From positions 86,249-150,248 of the IMG/VR virus record IMGVR_UViG_3300034101_003866: a stretch of 64,000 nt of DNA; one strand, written 5' to 3'. The notes under the pieces are model-generated. The model was not told where the DNA came from, did not search any database, and worked only from the letters and a program-made list of their open reading frames with translations. This document shows, piece after piece, positions 16,784-35,900 of the stretch. Made by a program: the position numbers and the translations under genes. The number at the start of each line of letters is the position of its first letter. Position 1 is the first letter of the stretch. This DNA is from a virus.

Positions 16784-19700
16784 TTATGCTATATCAGACC
16801 AATTATGAGAGTATCCTGTTCTGAAAGTATAACCAGCACTACTAGATATTAATATCGTTGTGCTATTAGCAATTGTGATAATAATTTTATTTCTATCTCC
16901 TCCATCCGTATGAGTCCACACTTTAAAGATGGGACTAAGTGCTCCAAGACCAGACATTGCCTGAGTCCAAGAAGCCTTATTATCTGTTGAATGATATATT
17001 TTTCCCTCAGTTGTTGTGACAGCATATCGCCCATTACCCACATATATTCCATATCCATACGTAATTTTATCTACATTAAACATACTGCTTTGTCCAGATC
17101 CATTTATTATGGTACTCCAGCTTATTCCATTACTACTAGTCGCTACGCCCATTCCTGCTCCAAGTGATCTATTTCCTATTATTATAAACTCATTATTAAG
17201 ATATTCTAATGATGAACAAGGCACAATTGGTCCTCCAAATGACCTTACTGTCCATGTTAATCCATCCGGCGATGTTGAACAGGTGCTTGAATTTTCTGTG
17301 GCGGCCACAATTATATTAGCACCATAAGCAATTCCTTTCCAATTAGCACTAGCAGGTAATGAAGAATAACTAACACTATTAACACTACCATTTAAGAATT
17401 TAATAATAGCAATTTCAGAACTAGTATTGGACGTTAATATAAAGTTATTATTAATAGGATCATATGTAGAACTAATCCACAAATGAATGACACCAGGCAT
17501 GTCATCTGCCATATCATATGATTGCCAAGTTATACCATTATCAGTAGAATAATTAATAATATAACTATTATATGCTGCAGCAACGAACACTCCATTGCCA
17601 TAAGATATTGTTGTCCACAATTGATTATCTGGTAAGTTCTTTAAGAGATAAGCATCACCATAGTCTTGAGATACCATAGCCTTGTTATTGCTGTATGCTA
17701 CAGCAACAGCATTAGCTTGAGGTATGGCACTAGTTACTGTTGGAGTTATGGTTACTGTTTGAGTTACTGTTGGAGTGGTGGTTGTTGTTATAGTAGGAGT
17801 GATTGTTGGAGTAATGCTAATTGTTGGAGTTGGAGTTTGTGTTGATGTTATACTCGGTGTTATTGAAACTGTTGGCGTTATTGTTCTGGTTGGAGTAGCC
17901 GTGGCAGTTACACTAATAGTAGGAGTAACTGTTGTTGTTGGACTAATTGATATTGTTGGGGTAATTGTGACAGTATTTGTTACACTTGGAGTTATGCTAA
18001 TTGTTGGGGTGATTGTATTAGTAGGAGTAATTGATGGGGTATTTGTTATCGTTATAGTTGGAGTAATACTGGTAGTTGGAGTTATGCTAGTTGTTGGAGT
18101 TATAGTAGATGTTACGGTTATTGTAGGAGTTGCTGTAACTGTTGGAGTTAATGACTTTGTTGGAGTTTTTGTGACTGTAGGAGTTATAGTATTAGTTGGA
18201 GTTAAACTATTAGTTTGAGTAATAGTTGGAGTAACTGTTTGAGTAATAGTTAATGATAATGATGGAGTTACTGTAATGGTTGGTGAAGGAGTTAACGAAG
18301 ACGATACTGTTACAGTAGGGGTTGCGGTACGCGTTACGGTATTGGTCGGAGTACTAGTTAGAGTGGATGTATTTGTTAGTGTTATTGTCGGGGTTTGCGA
18401 TGGAGTTGCTGTTACAGTTGGGGTGATGGTTTTTGTTGGCGTTGGACTAACATTGGGTGGTTCGTACAAAATTGCAACATTAGGAACAAGTTTTCCTTGT
18501 AATAAGAATCCTTTGTATAAAACTTCTATTTCATCACCAGAATAAACTGCATTTTGATAAATTAATTGACCAAGATTAATTGGAACAACTAGACTTTTGG
18601 ATGGTGTCGGGGTTATTGTTGATGTTCGTGTTGGTGTTTTGGTAGTGGTTCGTGTTGGTGTTGTGGTTTTAGTTATAGTCGGAGTAACAGTCTGTGTTGG
18701 TGTTACTGTTGGAGTCACAGTTCTTGTTTGAGACACTGTTCTGGTAACAGTTTTGGTCGGAGTTATAGTTTGAGTAGCGCTAATAGATACTGTGGGTGTC
18801 TTTGTTGCTGTAACACTTTTGGTTGGAGTAACACTCTTAGTAACTGTTGGTGTTGCTGTTCTAGTTGGTGTTTTTGTTGGGGTGGCTGTTTTAGTTGGCG
18901 TAGGGGTTGGGGTGGCTGTGTAGCATACGCTTTCTGGACTAGTTTTATAAGCTTCTCCATTATCATCAACAATAACAGCATTAGGAGCAACATCACTTTG
19001 TGTTGCATACGTCCAGAATCCGGTATTAGCTCCGCCGCCTTTATAAAAAGCGGCTTTATACCATTCATTCTCGTTAGGAATCCAGTAAGTATTTTTGTTA
19101 GATGGTGATGGTTTGGATGTTCCCTCGATTATTCCGCTTAAACTATAAACTCCAGACTCAGTATCGTTTCCAGTTTGTCCACCATTATGTAGCCAATTAA
19201 CATATCGTGCAGCACAAAACCAATTCATAAAATTAACTGGCTTATTCCCCATATCCATTTTTGCAGAATATGTGAAGCCTACCGACGAAGATCCTGATCT
19301 ATTGATTCCGCCCCTAGGATCATCGCTCATTTCGGGTATCCATAATGCTAGCCCAAAATTAGACGTACTAGCAACCGCATTTAAAAACTGAACATATTCA
19401 GAGTTTGTTATAGCATACTTTTTAATTTGATAATTATAAGCTACTGCACCATAATTATTATTAGCAGCATCACCGGTATTATTAGAGTCCGTCACTAGTG
19501 CATAATTAGTTGAATCTATTAACGATGCTGTTTTGGCTATTCTGAATCCTATATCATTTCTTTTTCCATCAACATAATTAATATCAGAATAATTTTTAGC
19601 TAATTGACCACTAGCACTTACGAAAGATCCTCCTCTGAATTTAGGATAACCGTCAACAAAAGTATCAACTATCTCATTAATGTTTCCGCTCTGATCATAG

Positions 19701-19810
19701 GTTCCATAGTAACTAGAGATTCCATTTAATCCTACTGCTGATAAGTTACCAGTAATCCCATTCCAAACAGCCTGACTATTATAGTTAGAACTATTACAAT
19801 TATTTAACAT
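16784..19810 (-). CDS. Adhesin/fibre-like protein: permuted FGE-sulfatase (C-lectin fold) domain, Thr/Pro stalk, C-terminal beta-propeller
   Basis: YGTYDQSGN..E, RGGSF, IGFR, ITNSEYVQFLN, NKPV, EWYKAAFY motifs; about 400 aa of TPT repeats; W..I.YG.G.FVA and S.DG.TW blades. Confidence 0.8.
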   Translation of the reverse strand: MLNNCNSSNYNSQAVWNGITGNLSAVGLNGISSYYGTYDQSGNINEIVDTFVDGYPKFRGGSFVSASGQLAKNYSDINYVDGKRNDIGFRIAKTASLIDSTNYALVTDSNNTGDAANNNYGAVAYNYQIKKYAITNSEYVQFLNAVASTSNFGLALWIPEMSDDPRGGINRSGSSSVGFTYSAKMDMGNKPVNFMNWFCAARYVNWLHNGGQTGNDTESGVYSLSGIIEGTSKPSPSNKNTYWIPNENEWYKAAFYKGGGANTGFWTYATQSDVAPNAVIVDDNGEAYKTSPESVCYTATPTPTPTKTATPTKTPTRTATPTVTKSVTPTKSVTATKTPTVSISATQTITPTKTVTRTVSQTRTVTPTVTPTQTVTPTITKTTTPTRTTTKTPTRTSTITPTPSKSLVVPINLGQLIYQNAVYSGDEIEVLYKGFLLQGKLVPNVAILYEPPNVSPTPTKTITPTVTATPSQTPTITLTNTSTLTSTPTNTVTRTATPTVTVSSSLTPSPTITVTPSLSLTITQTVTPTITQTNSLTPTNTITPTVTKTPTKSLTPTVTATPTITVTSTITPTTSITPTTSITPTITITNTPSITPTNTITPTISITPSVTNTVTITPTISISPTTTVTPTISVTATATPTRTITPTVSITPSITSTQTPTPTISITPTITPTITTTTTPTVTQTVTITPTVTSAIPQANAVAVAYSNNKAMVSQDYGDAYLLKNLPDNQLWTTISYGNGVFVAAAYNSYIINYSTDNGITWQSYDMADDMPGVIHLWISSTYDPINNNFILTSNTSSEIAIIKFLNGSVNSVSYSSLPASANWKGIAYGANIIVAATENSSTCSTSPDGLTWTVRSFGGPIVPCSSLEYLNNEFIIIGNRSLGAGMGVATSSNGISWSTIINGSGQSSMFNVDKITYGYGIYVGNGRYAVTTTEGKIYHSTDNKASWTQAMSGLGALSPIFKVWTHTDGGDRNKIIITIANSTTILISSSAGYTFRTGYSHNWSDIA
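17730..18920 (-). repeat. Thr/Pro-rich coding repeat, about 6-aa period (TVTPTI-like)
   Basis: Imperfect 18-nt periodic repeats (gttggagt.. on + strand), interrupted once by a roughly 50-aa unique segment near 18450-18600. Confidence 0.9.
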
Positions 19811-19824
19811 ATTTTAATAGTCCT

Positions 19825-22800
19825 TTAGAAATTATTAGTAACTGAAAACGTAACTGTTTGTGATGGTGCAGAAACAATGGAGTATCCAGCTCCAGCTGGA
19901 TCGCTGCCATTAATATTAACGGGAGAGTAAAGAGCATAGACTCTAGCTTTATAATTACCTAAACCTACCGGAAAATGAGATCCAAAAGTATAGCTAGTTT
20001 CAGTAGCTGATATTTGGCGAGAGCTGAAGAAAATATTAGTCGATAAATCGACATACATGACTGCTACATAACCATATAGAGTAAGAGAAATTCCTGGGAC
20101 TAATAGTGTCTGTGTCGGATGGCTCCATGTTATTGCGGCTTGTAAATCTCCTCCTGTCGCGCTTAGAATATTTGGAGCACATGGATTTGCAGTATCATTA
20201 TTAGGGTTCCACCTATACCATCCTGCATTTATCATACCTGCTATAGTTCTTGGGTCCTGATTAAATCCAAAATTGTAACTAATATATCTACTAAATAGTC
20301 TAATATAGACTGGTCTATTATTTAAATCTACAGGTGGATTACGATAGTATCTCATGCTAGACAGGTCTACTGGCCAACTATAGGTATAATTTTGTATTGA
20401 TGCAACTGAAGAAAAGGGCAAATCATTCTTGGCCCATTGAAAAGTACTATCGAATATGGAACTATTAGAACTATTACCTAAATAAACACCATAGCTATAA
20501 CCATATAGTGGAATTGAATCTACTGTTGTGTCTAGTGGTGTTTTCCATGTTAAAAGTGCTGAATCCTGATATGATTGCATTACAAAATTCGAAGGAGCAT
20601 TAGCACTATCGGATAAAAGACGATCATTTCGCATGCTAGGACTAATTGTCATTGTTGGAGTAACGGTTACGGTACTAGTTACTGTTGGAGTAGTAGTTGG
20701 AGTAAATGATGGACTAACAGTAATTGTTGGAGTAACTGTGGGTGTTTGCGTATTTGTCGGAGTTACAGTTATTGTGGGTGTTACTGTTGAGGTTACCGTT
20801 GGAGTCACTGTCTCTGTTGGAGTAACTGTAATTGTTGGAGTAATTGTCTGTGTTGTTGAAACGGTTTGTGTTACTGTTGGTGTTGTAGTAATAGTAATAG
20901 TTGGTGTTGGTGTTAGTGTTGAAGTTACACTGGGTGTTGGAGTATTCGTTGAAGTTACTGTTGCTGTTGGTGTTACTGTTGATGTTATTGTTGGAGTAAC
21001 TGTGATTGTTGGCGTGACAGTTCTTGTTACTGTTGGAGTAACTGTTCTTGTTGGATAAGGAGTTTTGGTAACTGTTCTTGTAACCATCGGAAGTCTGGTT
21101 GCGCCTATTTCACAATCATTACTAAGACTATCACACTTTACCACAGTATTATTCTGATAAAAGACACGAGGAAGAGGAATACTTGAACTAATAATACCAA
21201 GAGTATTAGTATAATCTCCATCTAGCCAAGTATTACTTATCGGAGGATCAGGATATGCAGGATTCATAATATAATATAGAAAATCTTCTCCCCCTGCTGT
21301 GCTCTTTTGAAAAGCCCAATATGTTGTATATGGATATGCTGCTAGAGTAGTAAGACCAATTCTTGGATAAGAGTTTTTACCATCTTTACTATAAAAATAA
21401 CTACCATTACTATCAGTAGTAGTTGATAAATAATAAATACCATTAATTCCATCTTGTACAGCCTGACCACCAGAAACAATAATATCAGAACTATTCATTA
21501 GTTTACTAGTTAATACTAACATTTTCATTGGCCAATATTTCGTAATTTGCACCATGATTTGTTCTGTTGTACTAGAAGCAATAAATGCCACGATTGGTTT
21601 ATCTATAGTGGCAGTATATGGAGATTCTTCGCTTAAAGTAAAGTAAGCAACATATTTATTTCCAGGAATAAGATTCGTGAATGTTACTAAATGTCCAACA
21701 TTCTGAGGTGTTGGTCCATTGCCGTATGGGTCAATATCAGAACATGATGGAGCATTATTGCTTTGAGTAGCGTAATTATAAAATCCACTGGGTATTATAG
21801 AATAAAAATCAAATACTCCAGGATTTTCAAAACTATTAGTTGACATATTAAATATGCCAGGAGAAATAGTGATATTAGTAGTAATAGGATCATCATAATT
21901 TATACTAGTAACAGTTGACCATGCTCCATTTTTTAAAATTTTCCAACCAGTTGTTACCGGAATAACGCTTTCTAAGTTTTGAACAGGGAGTGTGGCTGAG
22001 TCTTCAAATGGATTACCATTAGTATATGACCATTTCTGAACATCATTCAGATTATCTGAATAATAAGCTGCTTTATACCATTCTCTTCTTGAGGGTAAAT
22101 AATATCTAGCATTTGCTGATCTTGATATATCAAACTGTATACCATCGACACCAACAGAAGGACTGGATACAAAATCATAGGCACCAGTATCTATTATTTT
22201 TGTATTAGCATTATCTACTCTGTTATGTAGCCAATTACAATATCTCATTGCCATAAAAGCTGATACATAATTTACTGGTTTATTTCCCATATTTTGTAAT
22301 ACTGCATATTTTGAACCAGCAACATCATTATAGTCAAAACCTATTCCTCCATAAGTAGTATTTGACATAATCGAATGGTATAATAATCCAGAATTTCTAG
22401 AAGCTAATTGTCCATAACTATTACTATAATCAGATTCATCAGCAAGCAAACCACTAGGATCAACAGAATTTAAGAAGTCTACATATTGCTGATTCGTAAC
22501 TTCTAAAGCTGATGCTTTGAAATTAGAACTAATTGATCTAATAATAAATGGATAATTCCCAGCAATGTCTCTAAATCCGGGTGTCAAAAAGTTTGTAGAA
22601 TTATCTACAGTTTTAAGTATTGATATTTTACCAAAATATTCACTATATATGTCTTTATCTATTGTATACCACTCTTTTCTATCTCTATGATGTCCATAAA
22701 GTATAGATCCATCATAATTTATAGCTAATTGTAATATAGCAGGAGAGGATCCTGGACCACTTAATTGGGCATTTTTAATAAATACTGGCGATCCACCCGT

Positions 22801-23739
22801 AGTTGTTGGAAGTAAATTAATAGCATAAAAAGTATTTGACGCTGTTGAGGCGTATAACATACCAGAGTTTTTATCTATTGCAATATCGCCCAGTGTATTG
22901 TCTGTATCTAAAATAGGTAATGAAATATTCCATGTTTGTTTTCCTGTTGCTGTTGGCACATTACTTGATCCTGCATAGGAGAATGATATTTTGTTCAGAG
23001 TTTTTGTACCCTCTGTAAAATACCAATAGCCACTAGCATAATAATCTGCATTTCCTATAGATGTAGTTAAATAAGTATTTGATGAAGCTATATAAGCTAG
23101 TTGTGGACTGGTTGAGTTCGTATTCCACCAATACAATCCAGAAGGATCACTTTCATAGCCATTAAAGGTAAAATAAATCTGATCCTTGTCAAAATTATAA
23201 GCCAAAGCATTACAGGGGCTTTTCTGAAAAGTTGTTCCTGTGCCAAAAACTAAAGAACAAGCTCTTCTTTCTGGTATTACTTCAAAAAATAAATTTGTTT
23301 CTGTAATTCCATAAATTCTGGATTGTGGTAAAGTATCAGAAGCTGATGATCCGCTGACTGTAACAAAATTAGGTAAGTTTAGCGGGTTGCTGGTTGAGAA
23401 TACTCTAAATCCAATATCTTTTTTAAGAGTAAATGAGTTATAATTATTCTGATTATGTATACCAATATTATTAGAAGTATCATATTTGGAGATAGTTCCA
23501 CTATTCGAACTAAATGATCCTCCCAAAACTATTTTCGATGAGCTATAATTGTACTCTGGATTATATCCACTAAAACTAACATTATTTTCAATCCATTCAG
23601 CAACATTTCCACTTTGATCATAAGTTCCATAATAACTAGGAGAGCCATTGAATCCAACAGCACTAACATTACCAGTAGCAGCATTCCAAATTACACAATT
23701 GTTATAATTAGCCTTATTAAGACCAGGTATATCCAGCAT
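19825..23739 (-). CDS. Adhesin/fibre-like protein: permuted FGE domain with inserted beta-propeller, Thr/Pro stalk, two FN3-like domains
   Basis: YGTYDQSGNVAEW, IGFR, EVTNQQYVDFLN, NKPVNYVS, EWYKAAYY; APSNF...LLTWKTP and APNI...AITWSHP FN3-like starts; AAAGGA RBS. Confidence 0.8.
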   Translation of the reverse strand: MLDIPGLNKANYNNCVIWNAATGNVSAVGFNGSPSYYGTYDQSGNVAEWIENNVSFSGYNPEYNYSSSKIVLGGSFSSNSGTISKYDTSNNIGIHNQNNYNSFTLKKDIGFRVFSTSNPLNLPNFVTVSGSSASDTLPQSRIYGITETNLFFEVIPERRACSLVFGTGTTFQKSPCNALAYNFDKDQIYFTFNGYESDPSGLYWWNTNSTSPQLAYIASSNTYLTTSIGNADYYASGYWYFTEGTKTLNKISFSYAGSSNVPTATGKQTWNISLPILDTDNTLGDIAIDKNSGMLYASTASNTFYAINLLPTTTGGSPVFIKNAQLSGPGSSPAILQLAINYDGSILYGHHRDRKEWYTIDKDIYSEYFGKISILKTVDNSTNFLTPGFRDIAGNYPFIIRSISSNFKASALEVTNQQYVDFLNSVDPSGLLADESDYSNSYGQLASRNSGLLYHSIMSNTTYGGIGFDYNDVAGSKYAVLQNMGNKPVNYVSAFMAMRYCNWLHNRVDNANTKIIDTGAYDFVSSPSVGVDGIQFDISRSANARYYLPSRREWYKAAYYSDNLNDVQKWSYTNGNPFEDSATLPVQNLESVIPVTTGWKILKNGAWSTVTSINYDDPITTNITISPGIFNMSTNSFENPGVFDFYSIIPSGFYNYATQSNNAPSCSDIDPYGNGPTPQNVGHLVTFTNLIPGNKYVAYFTLSEESPYTATIDKPIVAFIASSTTEQIMVQITKYWPMKMLVLTSKLMNSSDIIVSGGQAVQDGINGIYYLSTTTDSNGSYFYSKDGKNSYPRIGLTTLAAYPYTTYWAFQKSTAGGEDFLYYIMNPAYPDPPISNTWLDGDYTNTLGIISSSIPLPRVFYQNNTVVKCDSLSNDCEIGATRLPMVTRTVTKTPYPTRTVTPTVTRTVTPTITVTPTITSTVTPTATVTSTNTPTPSVTSTLTPTPTITITTTPTVTQTVSTTQTITPTITVTPTETVTPTVTSTVTPTITVTPTNTQTPTVTPTITVSPSFTPTTTPTVTSTVTVTPTMTISPSMRNDRLLSDSANAPSNFVMQSYQDSALLTWKTPLDTTVDSIPLYGYSYGVYLGNSSNSSIFDSTFQWAKNDLPFSSVASIQNYTYSWPVDLSSMRYYRNPPVDLNNRPVYIRLFSRYISYNFGFNQDPRTIAGMINAGWYRWNPNNDTANPCAPNILSATGGDLQAAITWSHPTQTLLVPGISLTLYGYVAVMYVDLSTNIFFSSRQISATETSYTFGSHFPVGLGNYKARVYALYSPVNINGSDPAGAGYSIVSAPSQTVTFSVTNNF
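20635..21085 (-). repeat. Thr/Pro-rich coding repeat
   Basis: About 150 aa of TVTPT/TITVT repeats. Confidence 0.9.
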
Positions 23740-23759
23740 TATTAATTTCCTTTATTTTT

Positions 23760-26474
23760 TTAAATACACTCAGGACCACATTTTACTGCAAGATAGTCCA
23801 TAGCCTCCAAGGCATTGCTAGTATTAGTTAGTTTAAACTGTATAACAGCCTGACTCTGATTTTCTAAATTAATATTAGCAACAGTTAATAAATTAGCTTG
23901 TCCACTATTCTGAAATACAATATTACCACTACTCGGAGTTAGTGTGATAGCAGGAGATGCTGAAATGAATCGATATGTATGATTATCTCCTGGCATAGCA
24001 TTACTAACATTAACAGATAATAGCTTTGTTCCAGAGCAGCAACCAACTGGTAGTGTTAATACTGGAGATCCAGAGAATGAAACAATATAATCTGTTATAG
24101 GTAAGCAATTATTACAATTTAATGTAAAATCATTACTATACGTTGTTATATTTGAGCAAGAGGTTTGTTGAACGCTCATGTTCAAAGTTATAAACTTATT
24201 CTTTGATCCATCGTATAATGAATTTTCTTTATAGACTAGGATAGTATCTCTAGTGTCGGTAGCGCATGATCCACTAGGGTAACAGAACCCAATGTCTGTT
24301 TTGATAACTCTAGAGTCAGAAGTTGCCACAAATTCACCAGATTGTCTTGAAACAACAACCGGCCAATTACTATCAACACGAGCAAAATTGTATTTATACG
24401 TTTCTCCAGGAATAAGATTATTTAGTCTAGAGTTTAAAACATAAGTATTATTACCGAAAGTATCCAATACAGCATTAGAGTCTTGAATAATCTCAAGCTT
24501 CTTTAGACAATTATCACAAGAAACTCTACATTCATTACTTTGTGCTATTGAATCATTACAACCAGTTTCTTTAATTTCTAGTCTTAGTTTCACATTTCTA
24601 TCAATTGCTCCAAAATTCGTTGAACAAGTTGGATCTAATGAATATGGAATAACATTTGCTGTTCCATTAGGACATGTTCCTGTTGATGGGCAGAATGTTA
24701 ATCTGCTAGTTAAACTTTCAAAAGTTGAATTAGCTTTAATTACTCCACTCATTGGATATAGTATTGCTGGCCAATTAGCTCCAGCACCCTTAAACTCATA
24801 ACTATAATACGATCCTGGAACAAGATTACTAACATCTGCTAGAACATCAATATAATTTGTTCCATAGTTAAGAGAAAGATTCTTTGGTATTGTAGCATCT
24901 AGTATTGGTAAGCAGTTTTCGCAAGAGGCTGTTAACTCATTACTGTAAATAGTTTCAGCATCATAGTTAATTGGATCAACCATTAGTCTCAATTTAATAT
25001 TTCTACTAATATATCCTGCTCTTGTAATACATGAAGAGTCAATGGTATAATCGAGAACATCAGGATCAGAACTAGGACAAATACCGGTTGATTTGCAGAA
25101 AGATAATTTGGCGGGGATTGACATTGATGTTGTTGTTGGAGTTAATAGTCCGCTCATTGGAGAGATTGTTACAGGCCAATTAGCATCAACAGCCTCAAAA
25201 ACATATCTGTATTGTGAATTTGGAATAAGATTCAGTATGTCTGCATTAAATACATACTTATCATTTCCTTGTGTTAAATTCAAAGAGTTTGGAATAGACG
25301 CTCTTGGTTTGGACACACAGTCATTACAAAAAATACTTAATTCATTACTATAGGTTGATTCATTATTAGAAGATTGTTTAATTCTGAGTTTTATTCTTGC
25401 TGTTTTGTCTAATAGTCCAAAGTTGATATCTGATGATACATTGGTTGTGTATGCTAAGACTCCATTAACTCCACTTGGGCACAAGCCTGTTGATGGACAT
25501 AATGTTAGTTTAACAGGAATAGACGCCACTTTATCTGTGGCTACCATTGTGCCACTTTGTGGCTGCACTAAGACTGGCCAATTAGCTCTGACACTACTAA
25601 ATTCATATGAATATTCTTGTCCAACAATAAGATTATCTAAAGCAACATCAAAACTACTATAAGTATCACCAGCATTAAGATCAATTACAGAAGGTAACAC
25701 AGCATGAGTTTTTGGTAAACAGTCATTACAGAGCACGGAAAAGGACGATGATGAGCTAGCTTGTGGAGATTGTGCTTTTTCAACTGGCTCAACTACTAGG
25801 TTAATAACAGAATATCTATCTTCTCTATCTATACTATTTGAAGTATCAACATAGTTTAAAACTTTATCATCAGCTTCTAAGCAGACATTGGAAGATGAAC
25901 AGAATGATAGTAGACTAGTTATATTAGCATATTCATTTGAGGCTTTAATGACTCCTGATCTTGGAACTATCTTTACTGGCCAATTTCCTCCAGCTCCTTC
26001 AAAAGAGTATGTATATGATTGATTTGGTATTAATCCATTAATCTCTGATGTTATGCTTGTTGAATTTCCATCTTCTGGATTAAATGACATAGAGTCTGTT
26101 CTAATTGATAGTTGAGGAGCACATTCATCACATTCAACAATACATGGATGTGTATATATAACTTCATTAACATTATCATATTCTGTAATAGATAATCCAA
26201 GAACACTATATAAACTCTTTGGTCCAACAGCTAATCCTGGATCACTGATTTTTGTCTGTGGAGTATTGAAGAATACATTAGCATCAGAAGCTGGACATTC
26301 TCCAGTTGTTGAGCAAAAATATACATATGTTTTGACATTACTAGGATAAAATACTCCTGATAGTGGAGTTACTCTAACTGGCCAATTTCCACCATTATTA
26401 GTAAATTTAAATCTATATTTATTATTTGGATTTAATCCACTAACATTAACATCAATTGTTTTAATTGTTGACAT
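23760..26474 (-). CDS. Structural protein made of 6 full and 1 degenerate Cys-rich roughly 130-aa beta-sandwich-like repeats
   Basis: Repeated L.P...Y.Y.F.....NWP....P.SG...[FL]C....G.C...CxxC pattern. Confidence 0.8.
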   Translation of the reverse strand: MSTIKTIDVNVSGLNPNNKYRFKFTNNGGNWPVRVTPLSGVFYPSNVKTYVYFCSTTGECPASDANVFFNTPQTKISDPGLAVGPKSLYSVLGLSITEYDNVNEVIYTHPCIVECDECAPQLSIRTDSMSFNPEDGNSTSITSEINGLIPNQSYTYSFEGAGGNWPVKIVPRSGVIKASNEYANITSLLSFCSSSNVCLEADDKVLNYVDTSNSIDREDRYSVINLVVEPVEKAQSPQASSSSSFSVLCNDCLPKTHAVLPSVIDLNAGDTYSSFDVALDNLIVGQEYSYEFSSVRANWPVLVQPQSGTMVATDKVASIPVKLTLCPSTGLCPSGVNGVLAYTTNVSSDINFGLLDKTARIKLRIKQSSNNESTYSNELSIFCNDCVSKPRASIPNSLNLTQGNDKYVFNADILNLIPNSQYRYVFEAVDANWPVTISPMSGLLTPTTTSMSIPAKLSFCKSTGICPSSDPDVLDYTIDSSCITRAGYISRNIKLRLMVDPINYDAETIYSNELTASCENCLPILDATIPKNLSLNYGTNYIDVLADVSNLVPGSYYSYEFKGAGANWPAILYPMSGVIKANSTFESLTSRLTFCPSTGTCPNGTANVIPYSLDPTCSTNFGAIDRNVKLRLEIKETGCNDSIAQSNECRVSCDNCLKKLEIIQDSNAVLDTFGNNTYVLNSRLNNLIPGETYKYNFARVDSNWPVVVSRQSGEFVATSDSRVIKTDIGFCYPSGSCATDTRDTILVYKENSLYDGSKNKFITLNMSVQQTSCSNITTYSNDFTLNCNNCLPITDYIVSFSGSPVLTLPVGCCSGTKLLSVNVSNAMPGDNHTYRFISASPAITLTPSSGNIVFQNSGQANLLTVANINLENQSQAVIQFKLTNTSNALEAMDYLAVKCGPECI

Positions 26475-26498
26475 TTATTTTACCTTTGTATATTGAGT

Positions 26499-27296: not shown

Positions 27297-27324
27297 TTGA
27301 TATCCTTTTTAGTATGAATAACTG

Positions 27325-27334
27325 TTTATACACC
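27325..27334 (-). promoter_or_regulatory. Candidate late promoter GGTGTATAAA
   Basis: Intergenic, about 30 nt upstream of the ATG at 27296; motif recurs in three other intergenic gaps. Confidence 0.5.
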
Positions 27335-27339
27335 ATATG

Positions 27340-29007
27340 TTATGGACTGCTAGGGGCTGCTCCTGGAGGAGTACGATCAATAACTATGCCAAGAGCTGCG
27401 CTAGCTATTCCCACATCTCCAGCTGAGTTTTTAATCCTGGCACTAATTGTATATTGACCATCATTTTTAACCGCATCTTCTGGAATAGCAACGTTATAGC
27501 CTCCGAGGAGATCGGGCTCTGCGGGTACTGTGGTGACTACACTATTATTAACTAAGATTTCTATAGTATCTGTATTCAGTAGATTTATAGTATTGGGTAT
27601 ACTGAGAGTAACAACTGGAGAAACAGCATTTGTTATATTGTCAGTATCACTTGATCCAGTGTCTGATGTTGCTACTAAATCAATAATAGCATCGGCTAAA
27701 GAAGGCACAGATGATGGAGGTTGAGCATCTGGCTGACCATCATCAATTGTTAAAGTCGCACCAGGGCCGCCTGCTCCATTAGAAGATAATGCTGGCTTTC
27801 TGTATGTGACCACTAACGGATTACTATATGTAATCTCAGACGGACACGAATTAGAAACTAGTGTTGCTCTTAGCATAATATCATAGTCAATTGACCCTGT
27901 CCAAAATTTGGGATATGATGGTATGCTGTAATTATTAACACCATTTTGTCCAGGTTGACATATTCCTGTTGACTGGCAAAATAAAATCTTACTAGATATC
28001 TGAGGAACAGTAGTAATAGATTTTACGTCTATTGTTCCTGATGACGGTCCAATGAAAATAATTGGCCATTGGGAATTAATTGTTTCTATTTTGTACGAAT
28101 ATATTTGATTTTTAAGCAAATTATTAATAGATAAATTAAATTCATACGATGCATTAACTGTTGTGTCTGTTGGTCTATTTACTATATTAGGAACAGAACT
28201 AGATAGTGATATTGATGATTTTGGTAAACAATCCTTGCATCCTATGCTGAACTGATTGCTTATAGTTTCTGGACCATCAAAAGAGGTTGGGGTTATTGAT
28301 AATTCCATTATTGCATATTTATCACTATCTTTCGTAAATAAACATGGCTGTGGAAGATTATAATTTAGAGTATTAGAATCACAACTTCCGCTTGTTGGAC
28401 AGAAAGTCACTCTTGCTTTAATTAAACCCGTTGGAGTTGATGGCTTTAGTATTCCGGATATTGCATTAACGCTAACTGGCCAATTAGCATCTACACTTTT
28501 AAATACATATCTATACTCTTCATAAGGTTGTAAATTTTCTATCTGTGGATTAATAACTATAGAGTTACCATCTGCCAGAGTTAGTATTTCATTCTCTATA
28601 CTTGATGGTATAACATTTGGCAAAAGTTTAGTAGCAGTACTCGTGAATCCGAGTAACGATCCTCCAATAGCTGGAATTTTTAATGGAATAGCAGATTCGT
28701 CTCTAACTATAAAATAATATGATGATCTTGGATCTAAAAATTCTAAATCAGAATCTGGATGTGGTGCGTATAGGTATCTTTTATTACCAAGCGAGTCTGA
28801 TCCTTCTACTAGTTTTGTCCAAAATTTTGGAATTTTTCCATTAGCGCTTTGGCTGCTATATATAGCACTTATACTTTGAATGAATCGGTCATATTCTGCT
28901 CGTCCCTCATCTGTTAAATTTGCTGGAACAGTTTTCAATGACAGTCTTTGATTACCACTATAATATGTAATAAAAAATTGGCTATTTATAATCATGATAT
29001 AGTCCAT
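27340..29007 (-). CDS. Protein with two NWP repeats and a C-terminal bacterial Ig-like (Big) domain
   Basis: DANWPV...FCPTSGSC...CKDC; SQWPI...FCQSTGIC; DLVATSDTGSSDTDNITN...AGDVG.ASAAL.IVIDRTPP is typical of Big repeats in bacterial adhesins. Confidence 0.8.
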   Translation of the reverse strand: MDYIMIINSQFFITYYSGNQRLSLKTVPANLTDEGRAEYDRFIQSISAIYSSQSANGKIPKFWTKLVEGSDSLGNKRYLYAPHPDSDLEFLDPRSSYYFIVRDESAIPLKIPAIGGSLLGFTSTATKLLPNVIPSSIENEILTLADGNSIVINPQIENLQPYEEYRYVFKSVDANWPVSVNAISGILKPSTPTGLIKARVTFCPTSGSCDSNTLNYNLPQPCLFTKDSDKYAIMELSITPTSFDGPETISNQFSIGCKDCLPKSSISLSSSVPNIVNRPTDTTVNASYEFNLSINNLLKNQIYSYKIETINSQWPIIFIGPSSGTIDVKSITTVPQISSKILFCQSTGICQPGQNGVNNYSIPSYPKFWTGSIDYDIMLRATLVSNSCPSEITYSNPLVVTYRKPALSSNGAGGPGATLTIDDGQPDAQPPSSVPSLADAIIDLVATSDTGSSDTDNITNAVSPVVTLSIPNTINLLNTDTIEILVNNSVVTTVPAEPDLLGGYNVAIPEDAVKNDGQYTISARIKNSAGDVGIASAALGIVIDRTPPGAAPSSP

Positions 29008-29032
29008 TCATAAAGTTTATGTTGCATAATAT

Positions 29033-29042
29033 TATTTACACC
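29033..29042 (-). promoter_or_regulatory. Candidate late promoter GGTGTAAATA
   Basis: Intergenic, immediately after a stop codon and about 25 nt upstream of the ATG at 29007. Confidence 0.5.
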
Positions 29043-29927
29043 CTATGTAAAATCTGATATTGGAATAGTATCCCCAATAACTCTGCCGCCCGCTTTTAAT
29101 AAACAAACAGAAGGTATTGGCTGTGGTGATTCTGGCGAACCCAATAGGGCCGTATTTTTAACAGGTAACAGAACAACGGTGTCCTGGTTTTGCGCTGGAT
29201 TTTCTAATATGAATTTTACTATTACTTGATCTCTTACAATATATGTCCAATTATTATTATAGTCTAATGCAGTATATACTGATGAGGCATTGTTATAAAC
29301 CAGATTCGTTGGGTCGATACAACCAATAGCAGTGACGAAGGAAAATGTTCCAGAATATGATTGATTTGCTACGAAATTAACAACCTTGTTAAGCTCAATT
29401 AAGGTATTAGAAATTAAACTTTTAACAAAATATGTTTCTGTGGTTGGTATTCCTGGGCCAGTAACTGTTGATCCTAGTGTTATTGATGAACTTGCTCCTG
29501 TTGTATCCGTTATTTGTATAATTGATCCTCCGTTAGGACCAATCCCTCCAGAAGAAGTTGACAAAAGAAGGGTGCCAGCAACACTAGCTTTTGATTCTGG
29601 TGAACATATTATTAATAAATAATCAGTATATAATACATTATTTTTTGTATCTTTTATCGTTAATCTTAATAAAGTTTTCGTTTGTATTTTCTGTAATGCC
29701 TTAACTTTCATAAAAATTTTTGGAACCAAACTTGCTGAACCCTGAATAGAATAAGATCCTGATGGAGGCTCAAAAGTTATTGTGGTTGGCGGATTTTTAG
29801 GTAGGTTAATTGGAGTATCAAAATATAATACATACTCTGTTTGTTTTTTTATAGAAGATGGGATAGGGAAATATACAATAAATCCCTTTTGCCCTTCTTC
29901 TAATGAATAATTTTGTGTTGTAATCAT
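29043..29927 (-). CDS. Hypothetical structural protein (294 aa)
   Basis: Beta-rich; G..VTGPGIP..T.V motif seen in phage fibre/baseplate proteins; tightly coupled to neighbours. Confidence 0.65.
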   Translation of the reverse strand: MITTQNYSLEEGQKGFIVYFPIPSSIKKQTEYVLYFDTPINLPKNPPTTITFEPPSGSYSIQGSASLVPKIFMKVKALQKIQTKTLLRLTIKDTKNNVLYTDYLLIICSPESKASVAGTLLLSTSSGGIGPNGGSIIQITDTTGASSSITLGSTVTGPGIPTTETYFVKSLISNTLIELNKVVNFVANQSYSGTFSFVTAIGCIDPTNLVYNNASSVYTALDYNNNWTYIVRDQVIVKFILENPAQNQDTVVLLPVKNTALLGSPESPQPIPSVCLLKAGGRVIGDTIPISDFT

Positions 29928-29928
29928 A

Positions 29929-30501
29929 TTATATTGTTTCTGATTGACATTTAATTGTTACTATTTTTTCAAGTAATTTTTTATTATTCTGCGTTACTGA
30001 TATTACTGAAAATTTAAAGATACTAATATTTTGTTGATTATTGAGAATGGCTAAATTAATTGGAAGAATTGCTCTTCTTACAGAAATAGTTTCATTAGTA
30101 GTAGTTCCTGGTTTAGGAATAGTATAATCAGAATACTTGGCATCTTGTATTATTATGTCTTCTATATTGGTATTCGTAGTTAACTCAACAAATTCAAAAC
30201 TATATTTATATGGTTCTGGTTTTAATTGTGTAATTTCAAACTCTAATATGGCGCCTAAACAACAATAATTCTCTATACTATCATTAGCAATGAGGTTATT
30301 TTCATAGTATGTCTTAATAGTTGGTATTGGATCAAAGCATACCGGCTGACTAACAAATTCAACAACTGATCCGTCTGTGAGTTTTGTATATAGTTTTCCA
30401 GTAACACTATTCATTACTAATTCACCAATTGATATCTGATCTGTGCTTGGAAATCCATCACCTTGCTCGTCTCTTTTAAATAATAGTTTCATGTTGGGCA
30501 T
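29929..30501 (-). CDS. Small fibre/decoration protein with an N-terminal virion-attachment-type motif
   Basis: KLLFKR...PS.DQISIGELVMN..TGKLYTK resembles the K/R...P....GE..N..GKLY N-terminus of many phage fibres. Confidence 0.6.
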   Translation of the reverse strand: MPNMKLLFKRDEQGDGFPSTDQISIGELVMNSVTGKLYTKLTDGSVVEFVSQPVCFDPIPTIKTYYENNLIANDSIENYCCLGAILEFEITQLKPEPYKYSFEFVELTTNTNIEDIIIQDAKYSDYTIPKPGTTTNETISVRRAILPINLAILNNQQNISIFKFSVISVTQNNKKLLEKIVTIKCQSETI

Positions 30502-32951
30502 ACTCCTGTGAATAGAATAGATCCAAAGTCCCAGTTGCTTAGCAGATCATTTTCTCTTTGTACAGCTAATTCTGGATCTTCTTCCGATATTAAGTTTCCT
30601 GATGCATATATATAAGCATATGAACTTTGACCATTAGAATTATATGCTGATAGTCTATAGTGATAATTTATATTAGATTCAGTACCATTTATAACTTCAT
30701 TAGTAGAAGTAATAAGATTACTAGTATCATTATAATTCTGCCACGATATTCCAGCATCGTATGATTCTTCTATTCTATATCCAAGAATTGGACTTGATCC
30801 ATTTTGGCCAGCTTCCCAAGATAAAGCAATATCAGAATATATAGTATTATCAAATTCTCTAACATATGCTAAATTATATGGAGCTTTTGGAACAGATGAT
30901 CCTGGGGTCATGCCACTAGAAGCATCAGAGTATTCACCTATTCCAATTAGGTTTTGAGCAGATATTCTAAACTTATACTGGGTTGCGGCAGAAAGCCCCT
31001 TTATTGTCGCTCTTGTTGATTCTGGTTTTGCTCTATCAACAGAATATGGAGACTGTATATCGGTCCATGTGTCACCATTATTGGTGGAAAACTGAATAAT
31101 ATAATTTATTATTAAACTGTTACCATCACTCTCTGGTTGATTCCATTTGATTGATAATTCACTATTACCAATACCGTTTGAATCAGGATCAAGAATTATA
31201 CCGTAGGGTTTTCCTGGGGTTGTTGGATTGGTCTTTGGTACTCTGGATATTATCTTACCATTTTTATCAATTGTTAATAAAGCATTTGTTATATATTTAC
31301 CGCTATTATCTGATAACGGCAATGGTCTTAAATAAATGTCTTCAGTAATAATATTAGGACTATATATTGTCCTATCTACTGTTAAATCAGCATAATCATA
31401 AACATATCCTGTTATCGTCACCTCTCCTATTGTATAAGTACCAGTTGGTAATGAACTTATAACATATGCTCCGCTTGTATTAATAGAAACTTTTGCTCTA
31501 GTATCATAATTCCATCCTGAAGGATTTGTTTTTTCTCTATCTAGATACTTTACAAAATAAATACCGGAAGATGGAGATCCGCTAGCTGCGTTTGGTACAT
31601 TAGCATCTACCTTAAGAGCAGGAATCATACCTACTGGAATATTATGTGAATTTAATCCAAAAATATTTTCATCATAATTTCCATATCTTGTTTTTCTTTG
31701 TCCATAAACAAGGAAGTCTATGTTTTCACCAAGCATATTAAATGCTGTATGAGTATCTGGTCTTATACTGATACTATTAAGTGTGCTTGGTTTAAATTTT
31801 AATTGACTATTTTGTAGTTCGTCTTGTATGCAATTATATTGGTTCTTTGCAGTTCTTCCCAACTGCATATCCATATATGCTCCCTTAGTAACAGAGAATG
31901 CGTATCCATTCCCTAAATATGAGTTACCATCTGACCAAGGCTTTGGCGTACAAATTTTAATAGCTAAGCCTTGTACCGTTTGATCTGGTTCTCCATCGGG
32001 GTCAATAAAGTCTGCTTCTTGATAGAGGTCTTCTAATGGAGTAACTAGGTCAATAGAATCTTGTTCAGCTCCGTACCTAACTTCTGCTGCAAATTTAACA
32101 TATACAATTTCTCTCGTATCATTTCTCATTAATTCAATAGTATCAAAACCTATTCCAAATTCTGATTCTAGTATTTCTTGAGTTAATGCTGTGGCACTTA
32201 TACTAGCATCTGCCCATTTAGGTTTATTAATATAAAATATGATTCTACCATCTTCGACCTTAACTGGTCTCTTTGAGAATCTATTCCATTTAACCCCATC
32301 TGCATTAAGATACACTGCTGGAGACCACTCTGCGGGCTGATCTTTTCCCATGTGTGTAAGAATATTACCTTTATATCCTTCAAAGTTTGGATATATTTGT
32401 ATTCCTTCTGTTATTTTTGTTATAGCATTTATTGTAACTTTTGCTGGGATTTGAACGCTATCAATAGTAGTAGATGGTTCATATTCTATTTGTGAAAATG
32501 CTTTTATCTCGTGACTATTTGGATTATCAAAATTACCGGAACTTACATATAAAGGTCCGTATGGTTGACTTGGCATTGTTATAGCATTCAATCCAGTATT
32601 AAAAACCAATTTATTTCCCGGAATTGCTGCTAAATCATTTTCTCCAGATCTATATATCAAAGCACCTTCAGACCCAGGATAAGACGGTATTATATTTCCA
32701 CTGGAGTCTATTTTGCTTATTTGTTGATATAAAAGATTTTTAGATCTTAATCCACTAACGTCAACATATCCTTGTGATATAAGTTGTATTCCGCTTCCGC
32801 CAACTAACCACATATTACCACTTGCTGATAATTGAATATTCTTATCTCCAAGAACATTAAAATATTGTCCATCTATTTTTTTATTTCCAGTATTTATACT
32901 AACTCCTGGCCAGCTTTTTGGACCTAGTATTGTAAACCATGAATTGCTCAT
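30489..32951 (-). CDS. Fibre-like protein with two C-terminal fibronectin type III domains
   Basis: PGKP...LSIKWNQPESDGNSLIINYIIQFS...GLSAATQYKFRISAQNLIGIGEYS and PKAPYNL...LSWEAG.NGSSPILGYRIE...YHYRLSAYNSNG (about 30600-31225). Confidence 0.8.
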   Translation of the reverse strand: MSNSWFTILGPKSWPGVSINTGNKKIDGQYFNVLGDKNIQLSASGNMWLVGGSGIQLISQGYVDVSGLRSKNLLYQQISKIDSSGNIIPSYPGSEGALIYRSGENDLAAIPGNKLVFNTGLNAITMPSQPYGPLYVSSGNFDNPNSHEIKAFSQIEYEPSTTIDSVQIPAKVTINAITKITEGIQIYPNFEGYKGNILTHMGKDQPAEWSPAVYLNADGVKWNRFSKRPVKVEDGRIIFYINKPKWADASISATALTQEILESEFGIGFDTIELMRNDTREIVYVKFAAEVRYGAEQDSIDLVTPLEDLYQEADFIDPDGEPDQTVQGLAIKICTPKPWSDGNSYLGNGYAFSVTKGAYMDMQLGRTAKNQYNCIQDELQNSQLKFKPSTLNSISIRPDTHTAFNMLGENIDFLVYGQRKTRYGNYDENIFGLNSHNIPVGMIPALKVDANVPNAASGSPSSGIYFVKYLDREKTNPSGWNYDTRAKVSINTSGAYVISSLPTGTYTIGEVTITGYVYDYADLTVDRTIYSPNIITEDIYLRPLPLSDNSGKYITNALLTIDKNGKIISRVPKTNPTTPGKPYGIILDPDSNGIGNSELSIKWNQPESDGNSLIINYIIQFSTNNGDTWTDIQSPYSVDRAKPESTRATIKGLSAATQYKFRISAQNLIGIGEYSDASSGMTPGSSVPKAPYNLAYVREFDNTIYSDIALSWEAGQNGSSPILGYRIEESYDAGISWQNYNDTSNLITSTNEVINGTESNINYHYRLSAYNSNGQSSYAYIYASGNLISEEDPELAVQRENDLLSNWDFGSILFTGVCPT

Positions 32952-32966
32952 AATTGAATTTCCTCT

Positions 32967-35900
32967 TTAAATAAACCACCCAGGACCATTGGTTTTTTCG
33001 TCACACCACCAAGGAAGATTATCTGATTCTATTAAACCAGCATCTGAACATAAAGAGAATGTGTCTGTTTCTATTCTCTTGGGTTGAGCAGAGAATATAC
33101 ATCCAGTACAACTAGCTATAGTTCCTAATATTGATTTTGTATTACGATTATTCCATTGGTCATCAAGATTAGTGGCTGGCGTTTGTGTTTGCGTAATAGT
33201 TTGTGTGTTTGTTTGTGTGTTTGTTGTGTCTGTTCCACCACCTTGTGTGAAATTTAATTCAGATAATGATGACATTATTGTGCCATCACCAATCATAATA
33301 TGATCAGCATATAACCATCCACTCACACTTAAATTAGCAAATACTTTTGTTTCTTGGTTTGTTACAGCATCGATACCTGAACCAACCAAATAAGGTTCGG
33401 GTCTTTTGATACTAACAGATGATGTTCCAGTAACACTGTTACCATTAACTGGTCTGTAGTATGCGGCTTTATGCCATTCACTAAGTTCTGGTAGCCAGTA
33501 TTTTCTATAAGATCCTTTAGCTATACTATAAGTGTCTACATCAGTAAGATATATATTATATGATCCATTATTAAGTATATAATCAATATTATTTTCAGCA
33601 ATTATTGGAAGAGCCCCATTGTGCATCCAATTTATAAATTTAATAGCATTTAAATAACTAACAAAAGTGACTGGCTTATTAATCATGGATGGTTTTGGAG
33701 AGTACTCATAAACTCCTGTGTCTATTCGTAGTATTCCTCCAAGGTTACTGCTCGTCATTCTAGAATCATATAATTTACGATCTACTACCTTACTGCTAGC
33801 TGTTGCATTTAAGAACTTACAATATTGACTATTAGTAATTTCATATTTACCTATTCTATAAAAATTATTAACAACGCCTAGATTGTTTAATATTATAGGA
33901 GAATATGATCCAGTTGATCCTTTAACATATGTACTTGATGAATCTTTAATATTTCTAGGATCACCAACCGTAACAAAGGACATATTTAGTCCGGTTGCCT
34001 GAGATATAGCGGCCGAATCAATTATTCCCTGTAGCCCTGCTATTCTGAAGCCAACATAATCAAATCCCGACATTCTAGGAAGAGACTCTATACTTTTTAA
34101 ACCACTGGGGCCTATTTCAACATCGTCTGTTGTTAAGTAAGATCCTCCAGCGGTAAACTCGTTTATGTCACGAGATTCTATAGATGCTTTTTCAACCCAC
34201 TCTGCAACGTTTCCGTTCTGATCGTATGTTCCATAATAAGATGGTAATCCATTTGTTCCAATATCTGATAATACTCCACTAAATAAATTTCTGCTAATAT
34301 TATAATTATAATTTGCAGATGAGTAGTAGTTTGAAATGCCGCTTCCTCCAGTTGTTACCACAATAGGAAACATATCTGTTCTAGTGGTTGCAAATGGAGA
34401 ATAAATGCCAGATGGTTGTAATACTCTGCCAGAATTAGCTTTAATTAATAGTGCTGGTTGTTCATCAAGTCCATAAACTATAAAATTAATATCTTTTTGT
34501 TTGCTGTTAAAGACAGTATCTGTTAATGGTCGCACACTAAGAATATTTTCTGTTGAATCAGACAATGTACCTTCATCAACACTCTTAGTCATCGTTAAAT
34601 ATCCACCCTTAGTTATAGAGTAAACATTAACATTTGATGTAATATTTTGTACAATATTTTGATCTACTAAAAGTCCAACAACGGCACTACCATTTGATTC
34701 TAAACTAATAATTTTTCTGTATATATTAGATCCATTTGATGAGATCACTATTTGATCTCCAGCAGCAAACTCATCAGCAGAAACACTATCTGTGAAAGTA
34801 ATTTGTCTCAAGCAGGCTGTTGCGGGTCTTGGGGAATACTTTGTCCAAATAACATCTCTTTCAGTTAAGAAATAGTCATCTAAAGTATATATTCCAGTGA
34901 TTGCTCCATTTGACGTTGTGCTCAATAATTTATTTGCTGGCACAGGAAGTAAAAGAGCCCCTGCCGAATCAATACTGAGTGGACTATTAATTAGTTTACC
35001 GCCAGAAGCCATCAATAGTCCGCTAGATCCCAAATTACTAATAGTAATATTAGTAACATCAATATTTTGTGAAGATATGGTTGTTAGGTATGAGGTTCCT
35101 GTAGCATATACTGAGGACGATGAGAATGTTATTGATGATTGGGGACTAACTGTTATCTGACTATTTCCATTAGATAATAGTAAATTACCATTATTGTTAA
35201 TTTGTAATCTATTTCCACTATATCCAACATATGTAGAATCTACTGTAGTTTGTATGGTTTTTATTCCTGTGACACCAGAAACTACTGTGATATCTAGTGA
35301 ACCCTTTTCTCCATAAACTGTTGTATTAACTGCTCGTGATTCTATCTGGGCATAATTTGTTTGATTGCCTGTAGAATTTTTAGCAGAAAGGTTGATCTGG
35401 GAAACAACACTACCACTTGCTATATCTGTTGACGGTTTATGATAAAGAGTTATATTAGCTGGATAGCAGGATGTTCTATTCTCTAGTCTTAAGCCTTCTT
35501 GACAAACGGTATTAACAATATGGAATACTGTTGATGGCCGTGAGCCTGACGGAATGTTGATTCCTACTCTTCCGTCATAAGAAAAAAATAAATTTTTACT
35601 TAACGATCCGCTTCCATAAACTATAAAATCGCTACCATTAGTACTATTGTTAACAATGAAAGGATATGTACCACTAGTTGGGATAATGGTATCTGCTGAT
35701 GATGCTGAATTTGCTCCGATAAATACTCTTTGAGACTCTGAATCCCAATACATTTCGGCATTATTCATTTCTCCACTTAATATAGAAAAAGTATCAGAAT
35801 CATTATTTAATGACTGTACGCTCATTCTTTCTGGAGACTTATTATTTAGTACTACCCAATCCTTCCCTGTCGATGCTAATCTGGCATAATTATTAAATGA

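Follow-up and report, generated by a model that had tools for sequence, protein, structure and literature searches.

The fold of formylglycine-generating enzyme (FGE)-sulfatase domains, a C-type-lectin-like fold, is known from several well-described groups of proteins. The variable proteins of diversity-generating retroelements (DGRs), such as TvpA of Treponema denticola (2Y3C), Mtd (1YU0) and TaqVP (5VF4), carry a non-enzymatic, FGE-type version of it and serve phages and bacteria as surface-binding scaffolds; their domains have the canonical order, and their variable region lies at the 3' end, beside a reverse transcriptase and a template repeat. FGE itself (human SUMF1, 1Y1E; see also pFGE, 1Y4J) is a copper enzyme whose two catalytic cysteines follow an RGGS motif, whereas PorK and GldK are secretion-ring lipoproteins; these proteins and GldJ are all canonical in order. 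The same is true of the tandem FGE-sulfatase surface proteins of Planctomycetota and Verrucomicrobiota, which were canonical in the 77 loci and five genomes considered here, often form tight tandems, and are chromosomal rather than viral. Here we describe a 64,000-nucleotide (nt) stretch (hereafter, the window) of IMG/VR record IMGVR_UViG_3300034101_003866, a contig of 120,027 bases from an uncultured virus. It encodes three tail-module proteins, P0001, P0002 and P0003, which have the PF03781 family and the fold in common with FGE, PorK, GldK and GldJ. We consider it likely that each of the three bears one truly circularly permuted domain of the FGE type, C-type-lectin-like and, as in the DGR variable proteins, non-enzymatic, with the origin and binding role proposed below.

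The PF03781 scores of P0001, P0002 and P0003 (31.2, 52.1 and 37.9 bits, respectively) all exceeded the curated cut-off of 23.3 bits, which establishes homology to the superfamily. Scanning the whole proteins returned only the front of the profile (positions 35-138) in each of them. When the proteins were scanned in pieces, the first piece matched the back of the profile and the second piece matched positions 35-124/132 (E-values of 1e-6 to 6e-8), again in all three. Hereafter, the part that corresponds to the back of the profile (155-255) is called the C half, and the part that corresponds to the front (35-142) the N half. The C half was matched over amino acids (aa) 22-93 of P0001 (profile 164-255, E 0.011), over aa 24-113 of P0002 (profile 164-253, E 6.5e-7, 29.7 bits; 165-253 in the contig search) and, weakly, over residues 24-61 of the piece from P0003 (profile 155-191, E 0.054). 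Chance does not account for the weak single-piece values of P0001 and P0003, since these pieces come from a family that has 4152 cluster representatives at E <= 1e-10. A six-frame PF03781 search of the whole contig repeated the swapped order and found no copy beyond these three.

The swapped order was visible in three independent libraries (Pfam, NCBIfam and PHROG). The N-terminus of P0001 fell on positions 355-413 of the 413 positions of the EgtB model in NCBIfam, and PHROG 18508 matched aa 32-117 of P0002 with positions 178-264 of its 266 and aa 859-937 of P0003 with positions 53-113; models of GldJ and GldK gave weak motif matches. No model in the permuted order was found in Pfam, NCBIfam or PHROGs. 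Hidden Markov models (HMMs) built with jackhmmer for each half (aa 1-100 and aa 101-290 in P0001) likewise gave the C-then-N order in all three proteins. Thus, the back of the profile precedes the front in every copy, and the canonical colinear topology was found in none. A preliminary description of this DNA had predicted that PF03781 would give two partial matches in swapped order rather than a single colinear one, which is what we obtained for each protein, and the three minus-strand stretches with swapped motifs lie close to where it had placed them. The copies are mutually 36-39% identical, with 58 invariant columns.

Two of the copies had been said to begin at the protein N-terminus, and the start sites bear this out. 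In both P0001 and P0002, the ATG is preceded by an AGGA ribosome site (at 9-10 nt) and by an in-frame TAA stop (at two to five codons), and the six-frame contig search detected no FGE half in the genes upstream of either. These N-terminal copies are true protein starts. We conclude that the three domains are circularly permuted forms of the FGE-sulfatase/C-type-lectin-like fold, in an order established at the level of sequence.

Next, we analyzed the relatives of the domain. A phmmer search with aa 1-290 of P0001 against 1.84 billion cluster representatives returned 5969 at E <= 1e-3 and 947 at E <= 1e-30. The order of the halves was mapped in the best 150 relatives with one jackhmmer HMM per half; a purely (CN)n order was found in 66 proteins (33 CN, 28 CNCN and 5 CNCNCN) and a purely (NC)n order in 65. 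The median distance between C and the N that follows it in the (CN)n proteins was 1 residue, against 101 residues (range 4-490) between N and the next C. Given that the former is short and the latter long, the physical unit is C+N. This unit lies at the N-terminus in 40 of the 66 proteins (start within 25 residues of it) and at the C-terminus in 29 (end within 25 residues of it). It had been supposed that permutation frees the C-terminus of the domain for fusion to a stalk; this idea is not supported, since units occur at both ends and also internally, as in P0003, and since the termini of the canonical fold are already adjacent, so that either end could take a stalk.

The two orders were found in different places. 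An alignment-pattern scan of IMG/VR gave 296 related stretches, and among the best 76 IMG/VR loci, 72 of 81 mapped frames were (CN)n. All mapped frames were NC in the 77 bacterial loci, which were taken from one-genome-per-species contigs (mostly metagenome-assembled genomes of Planctomycetota and Verrucomicrobiota), and a permuted-alignment search of the five whole bacterial genomes found either the front half upstream of the back half or NCNC tandems. This split between CN in viruses and NC in bacteria, as judged from the sequences, holds for the samples taken; it has to be set against the fact that the samples were query-biased, the bacterial loci having been fetched with a canonical relative. 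A tblastn search with P0002 and the P0001 domain gave no match in 50,697 GenBank phage records, Foldseek found no relative in BFVD, and the literature searched yielded nothing on a permuted FGE or C-type-lectin-like domain. The permuted FGE form has apparently not been described previously. What the present proteins add is three paralogues in one tail module, a conserved nested propeller, gaps that define the unit, the clean separation of viral CN from bacterial NC within the samples, and an approximately unbiased (AU) test of a single origin. We also observed that related phages have an N half in the gene upstream of the P0001 orthologue (L006 1-2982, L008 2-2944 and the upstream frames of L091, L092 and L096). 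This is probably a P0002 orthologue cut by the edge of the locus, so the P0002-P0001 gene pair seems to be conserved.

The structure of P0001 aa 1-290 was predicted with AlphaFold2 (AF2) from a 26-row alignment of single-unit relatives. The model had a mean predicted local distance difference test score (pLDDT) of 84.1 and a predicted template modelling score (pTM) of 0.88, and formed one compact body rather than two lobes. We compared it with 48,161 representative PDB chains using VIA-align, and the best 13 rows were all FGE-fold proteins (Z 3.2-5.9, 85-152 residues aligned). CarF (5aoh) ranked first (Z 5.9, 152 residues aligned, root-mean-square deviation (rmsd) 4.2) and TvpA (2y3c) second (Z 5.7, 144 residues aligned), and PorK (9mzu, Z 5.1), pFGE (1y4j, Z 4.5), CalU17, ToxD, EgtB and PvdO were also matched. 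Residues 95-290 of the model aligned with the N-terminal parts of these proteins (5aoh 5-184, 2y3c 52-239 and 1y4j 27-214), and residues 3-94 aligned with C-terminal ends (EgtB 8vig 334-442, Mtd 1yu0 to 379 and TaqVP 5vf4 to 381). A single chain thus holds both homologous halves, in swapped order, and in P0001 they are predicted to form one folded domain; together, these features define a circular permutant.

About 270 residues separate the C half of P0002 from its N half. AF2 modelled aa 1-613 of this protein from 14 sequences, and the insert (aa 139-398 in the model) was predicted confidently (pLDDT mostly 75-93 over aa 140-390). VIA-align matched the insert to 3qqz (Z 15.6, 210 residues aligned, rmsd 3.2) and 2h2n (Z 14.9), as well as to glutaminyl cyclases (Z 14) and to YWTD and Kelch propellers (Z 12-13). 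From this model, the insert is confidently predicted to be a 5/6-bladed beta-propeller of about 265 residues. The layout of C half, insert and N half is kept in 13 cluster representatives (P0159-P0171) at 37-92% identity. The ends of a propeller lie side by side, and the propeller is therefore well suited to nesting in a loop.

Some of these structural results weigh against a single permuted domain. That the P0001 halves pack into one domain is predicted from a single AF2 model with an alignment of 26 rows, and the Z-scores of 5-6 are modest. Foldseek gave no match to the P0001 model in the PDB or BFVD at E <= 0.001. Moreover, the FGE halves of P0002 were modelled at a pLDDT of only about 30, from a shallow alignment, so that closure of the domain round the propeller is, on this model, no more than a possibility. 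The modest Z-scores can be explained by the use of a sequential aligner, which fits only one half at a time. The Foldseek result is not evidence of a new fold, because regular secondary structure is scarce in this fold and colinearity is lost through the permutation.

We also considered the possibility that the fold is completed between chains, with the C half of one subunit pairing with the N half of its neighbour in a trimeric fibre, so that the permutation would serve oligomerisation. Phage fibres are usually trimers, and the 270-residue separation in P0002 would be compatible with such pairing. However, in most units a linker of about 1 residue separates the HMM envelopes of C and N, and a compact and confident model was already obtained for the monomer, so that exchange of halves between chains seems quite improbable. 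It is more doubtful still that the halves are remnants of truncated tandem canonical domains, which would be unfolded, decayed or folding on their own. Canonical tandems with near-zero linkers do occur among the closest relatives, and any junction in them reads C-N; the low AF2 confidence for the P0002 halves would fit as well. Nevertheless, C+N stands alone in 33 single-unit proteins and is separated by long N-to-next-C spacers in 33 multi-unit proteins, it begins at Met1 in two of the proteins here and near the N-terminus in 40 of the 66 relatives, and the motifs of both halves are strongly conserved. The compact AF2 model of P0001 aa 1-290 (pTM 0.88) is also at odds with leftover halves. 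The true starts, the order given by the half HMMs, the median C-to-N gap of 1 and the predicted single domain thus uphold the earlier statement that the copies are not junctions between tandem repeats.

If the domain is a true permutant, its origin can be examined by phylogeny, a check that had been named beforehand. Unrooted trees were calculated from 247 units, all of them first brought into the order N+C. In the tree from all columns, CN and NC units were separated by one change (support 83). In the tree from core columns, from which the areas near the old and new termini had been removed, there were 4 changes, as compared with about 78 when the labels were shuffled; nine NC units placed among the CN units and a single CN unit placed apart from them argue against a perfectly clean separation. 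For a 63-row subset analyzed under LG+C20, holding all CN units together improved the log-likelihood by 7.1 units over the free search (AU p 0.58). CN and NC are largely separate, and one origin was not rejected. The trees thus permit a single origin of the permuted form, and this is the simplest explanation; it is probable, not proven.

Duplication and truncation is the most likely route to the permutant, starting from tight canonical tandems such as those in the surface proteins of Planctomycetota and Verrucomicrobiota. Many inter-unit junctions in the (NC)n relatives are of 0-10 residues, so that removal of the first N and the last C would give the permutant. The bacterial proteins are the closest sequence relatives of the phage domains (about 35-48% identity per half); both are matched by the same half-HMMs and are multi-copy, and the bacterial copies examined are also without the FGE catalytic cysteines. 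The same route has been proposed for permutants of a different kind of fold, in DNA methyltransferases and saposin/swaposin; in the phage family, permuted and tandem canonical forms both survive among close relatives. The chain would now start in what is, in the canonical order, the loop after the 'EW.KAA...W.YATQS' segment, and would run through the back half (SYYGTYDQ.GN..EW ... GGS ... GFR) and then, at the place where the old C- and N-termini lay side by side, through a short linker. It would finish with the front half (VTN..Y..FLN ... NKPV ... NW.HN ... EW.KAA), and the two halves would pack together. The join of the old termini would have become an internal loop tolerant of insertion, where P0002 holds a whole beta-propeller. 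After one origin, the permuted form probably became a mobile module and was passed on among tailed phages that are uncultured and largely from freshwater, where it can occupy the start, middle or end of fibre-like proteins.

The domains are probably non-enzymatic binding modules. Their tail-module context, the Thr/Pro linkers, FN3-like segments and propellers around them, and the known uses of the non-enzymatic fold suggest that the domain would bind a surface ligand, probably a glycan. The preliminary description had proposed a distinct family of phage adhesins; its phage side is in part borne out, in that the permuted order dominates the matches in virus contigs, and a role as receptor-binding protein or adhesin may be inferred from the position of the genes after that of the tape measure protein, among FN3/Ig-like tail proteins. 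In 103 permuted units, column entropy peaked (2.5-3.2 bits) and indels were most numerous at the positions of P0001 aa 51-90, between GN..EW and GFR, a stretch equivalent to the variable region of DGR proteins. When close orthologues were compared, identity was 73-92% over the permuted domain and 90-92% over this variable stretch. The C-terminal domain showed an identity of 55% in P0001 (against the orthologue in locus L006), of which it is the most divergent part, and 72% in P0002. The C-terminal domains thus diverge more and look more like fast-evolving tips. This counts against a leading part of the permuted domain in host recognition: judged from these identities, it is probably not the main determinant of host range, and it may bind a conserved ligand or sit in a virion-proximal position.

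One step further, the permuted domain could be a virion-proximal lectin that docks fibres on the mucin-like Thr/Pro stalk glycans of the phage itself, in a glycan-mediated self-assembly of the appendages. The N-terminus normally anchors phage fibres. The unit at the extreme N-terminus in 40 of 66 proteins and its better conservation relative to the C-terminal domains would fit this idea, which we regard as unlikely.

The preliminary description also linked the domains to DGRs, and of this link the shared fold has stood, whereas no retroelement was found. No RVT_1 reverse transcriptase was detected in the contig (87% complete; E <= 1) or in four virus contigs related to it (E <= 0.01), of which one is rated 100% complete. 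When the six segments that encode the halves were compared with the whole contig by blastn (word size 7), no template repeat appeared, and only the paralogous motif was recovered, at 74-82% identity. On these two negatives, the DGR hypothesis is rejected for this contig. If the domains were nevertheless DGR targets with the variable region at the 5' end of the gene, one could point to the fold of the FGE-type DGR variable proteins, to the equivalent of the variable region being the most variable segment of the family, and to the missing part of the contig, where a retroelement could lie. However, the identity of 90-92% between close orthologues in that very stretch, together with the absence of RVT_1 from all five contigs and of any repeat other than the paralogous motif, makes this hardly conceivable. 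Unlike the DGR proteins, the phage domains have the swapped order and carry the variable-equivalent near the N-terminus of the domain, without a retroelement; the stretch from GN..EW to GFR would here vary by ordinary divergence and not by retro-mutagenesis.

An enzymatic role (formylglycine generation, an EgtB/OvoA-like sulfoxide synthase or another SUMF1-family activity) is scarcely credible: although PF03781 scores above its cut-off and relatives are annotated as 'formylglycine-generating enzyme' or 'SUMF1/EgtB/PvdO family nonheme iron enzyme', the domains stand in a tail module with Thr/Pro stalks, FN3 domains and a propeller, and the closest structures include the non-enzymatic TvpA and PorK. 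The translations of the three copies contain no cysteine between GGS and GFR, whereas the two copper-binding catalytic cysteines of FGE lie there, after RGGS (human Cys336/Cys341), and an FGE enzyme is rejected for lack of this pair. EgtB/OvoA is likewise rejected, because TIGR03440 scored 15.7 bits against a cut-off of 360, over the last 60 model positions only, and there is no DinB-like iron-binding domain.

The features of the window are listed in Table 1. The virus record has 33% G+C, a CheckV completeness of 87% and no terminal repeats, and the minus strand holds all of the long genes, from about 600 to 63,600 of the window. The tape measure protein was recognized by PHROG 28 (E 1.8e-26), PHROG 4211, PHROG 14917 and others, eight of its nine further matches being to tape-measure families. 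Because its gene adjoins that of P0003, we place P0001, P0002 and P0003 in the tail-tip/fibre module. P0003 is the first gene downstream of the tape measure gene; six genes follow, which include FN3 and Big_13 proteins, and then P0002 and P0001. Apart from FN3, Big_13 and the tape measure protein, Pfam and PHROG scans of the neighbouring genes gave almost nothing. Language-model features in a protein atlas placed aa 691-1008 of P0001 near BNR/DUF6242_C/sialidase-like propeller clusters (score 0.93); this domain had no Pfam match, and phmmer found no PDB sequence match for it, for aa 1-700 of P0003 or for the permuted domain.

Several further observations were made along the window. The PHROG tape-measure matches are confined to the first ~800 residues of the tape measure protein, and its C-terminal 2941 residues had no PHROG match at E <= 1e-5. 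Two giant proteins of 2575 and 2141 aa lie at the end of the tail module; neither had a Pfam or PHROG match at E <= 0.001. A 329-aa protein carries the P-domain of proprotein convertase, which is unusual for a phage structural region. The family phrog_15511 matches Thr/Pro tracts of P0001, P0002 and a 441-aa protein, and a local positive GC skew at 18-22 kb is caused by the Thr/Pro-rich tracts.

Table 1. Features of the window, with positions counted from its first nucleotide
Feature	Position	Strand	Description
P0001, 1008 aa	16784-19810	-	Permuted domain at aa 1-290 (18941-19810)
P0001 C half, aa 1-100	19511-19810	-	SYYGTYDQSGN motif, GGS, GFR
P0001 N half, aa 101-290	18941-19510	-	ITNSEY..FLN, NKPV and EWYKAA motifs; PF03781 profile 35-134
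Rest of P0001	16787-18940	-	Two Thr/Pro-rich linkers (aa 291-690) flanking a short middle piece, then C-terminal domain (aa 691-1008)
P0001 C-terminal domain, aa 691-1008	16787-17740	-	Candidate BNR/DUF6242-like beta-propeller
P0002, 1304 aa	19825-23739	-	Halves at aa 3-122 and about 401-589 (21973-23733)
P0002 C half, aa 3-122	23374-23733	-	At protein start; C-half HMM aa 3-122
Predicted beta-propeller, P0002 aa 134-400	22540-23340	-	Between the halves, just after GFR
P0002 N half, aa 401-589	21973-22539	-	After the propeller; PF03781 profile 35-138; N-half HMM aa 393-589
P0003, 1155 aa	32967-36434	-	Domain at aa 700-1012 (33399-34337)
P0003 C half, aa 700-807	34014-34337	-	Internal to the protein; C-half HMM aa 700-807; GldK/GldJ models at the motif
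P0003 N half, aa 818-1012	33399-33983	-	PF03781 profile 35-124, 37.9 bits; N-half HMM aa 818-1012
Gene after P0003	30489-32951		FN3 domains; minor-tail-protein PHROG matches
Tape measure protein, 5882 aa	36438-54086	-	Directly upstream of P0003
2575-aa protein	632-8359	-	End of tail module
2141-aa protein	8359-14784	-	End of tail module
329-aa protein	61695-62684	-	P-domain of proprotein convertase (PF01483, E 2.8e-10) at aa 208-324; phrog_1084 at start
Thr/Pro-rich tract	17741-18940	-	TPT.T-type repeats
Thr/Pro-rich tract	about 20710-21160	-	TPT.T-type repeats
Thr/Pro-rich tract	60348-61673	-	TPT.T-type repeats

The FGE/C-type-lectin-like fold is a main scaffold for variable surface recognition by phages and bacteria, and a natural, abundant and apparently phage-borne permutant of it has consequences for annotation: profile-based methods mislabel or half-detect such domains, and a sequential structure search (Foldseek) misses them entirely. 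The family is also a clean natural case of permutation, in which the permuted form and its tandem canonical precursors coexist at about 40% identity, and in which the join of the old termini becomes a hot spot for insertion, here with a nested beta-propeller. Finally, the permuted order picks out a large number of domains of uncultured freshwater phages as candidate binding modules.

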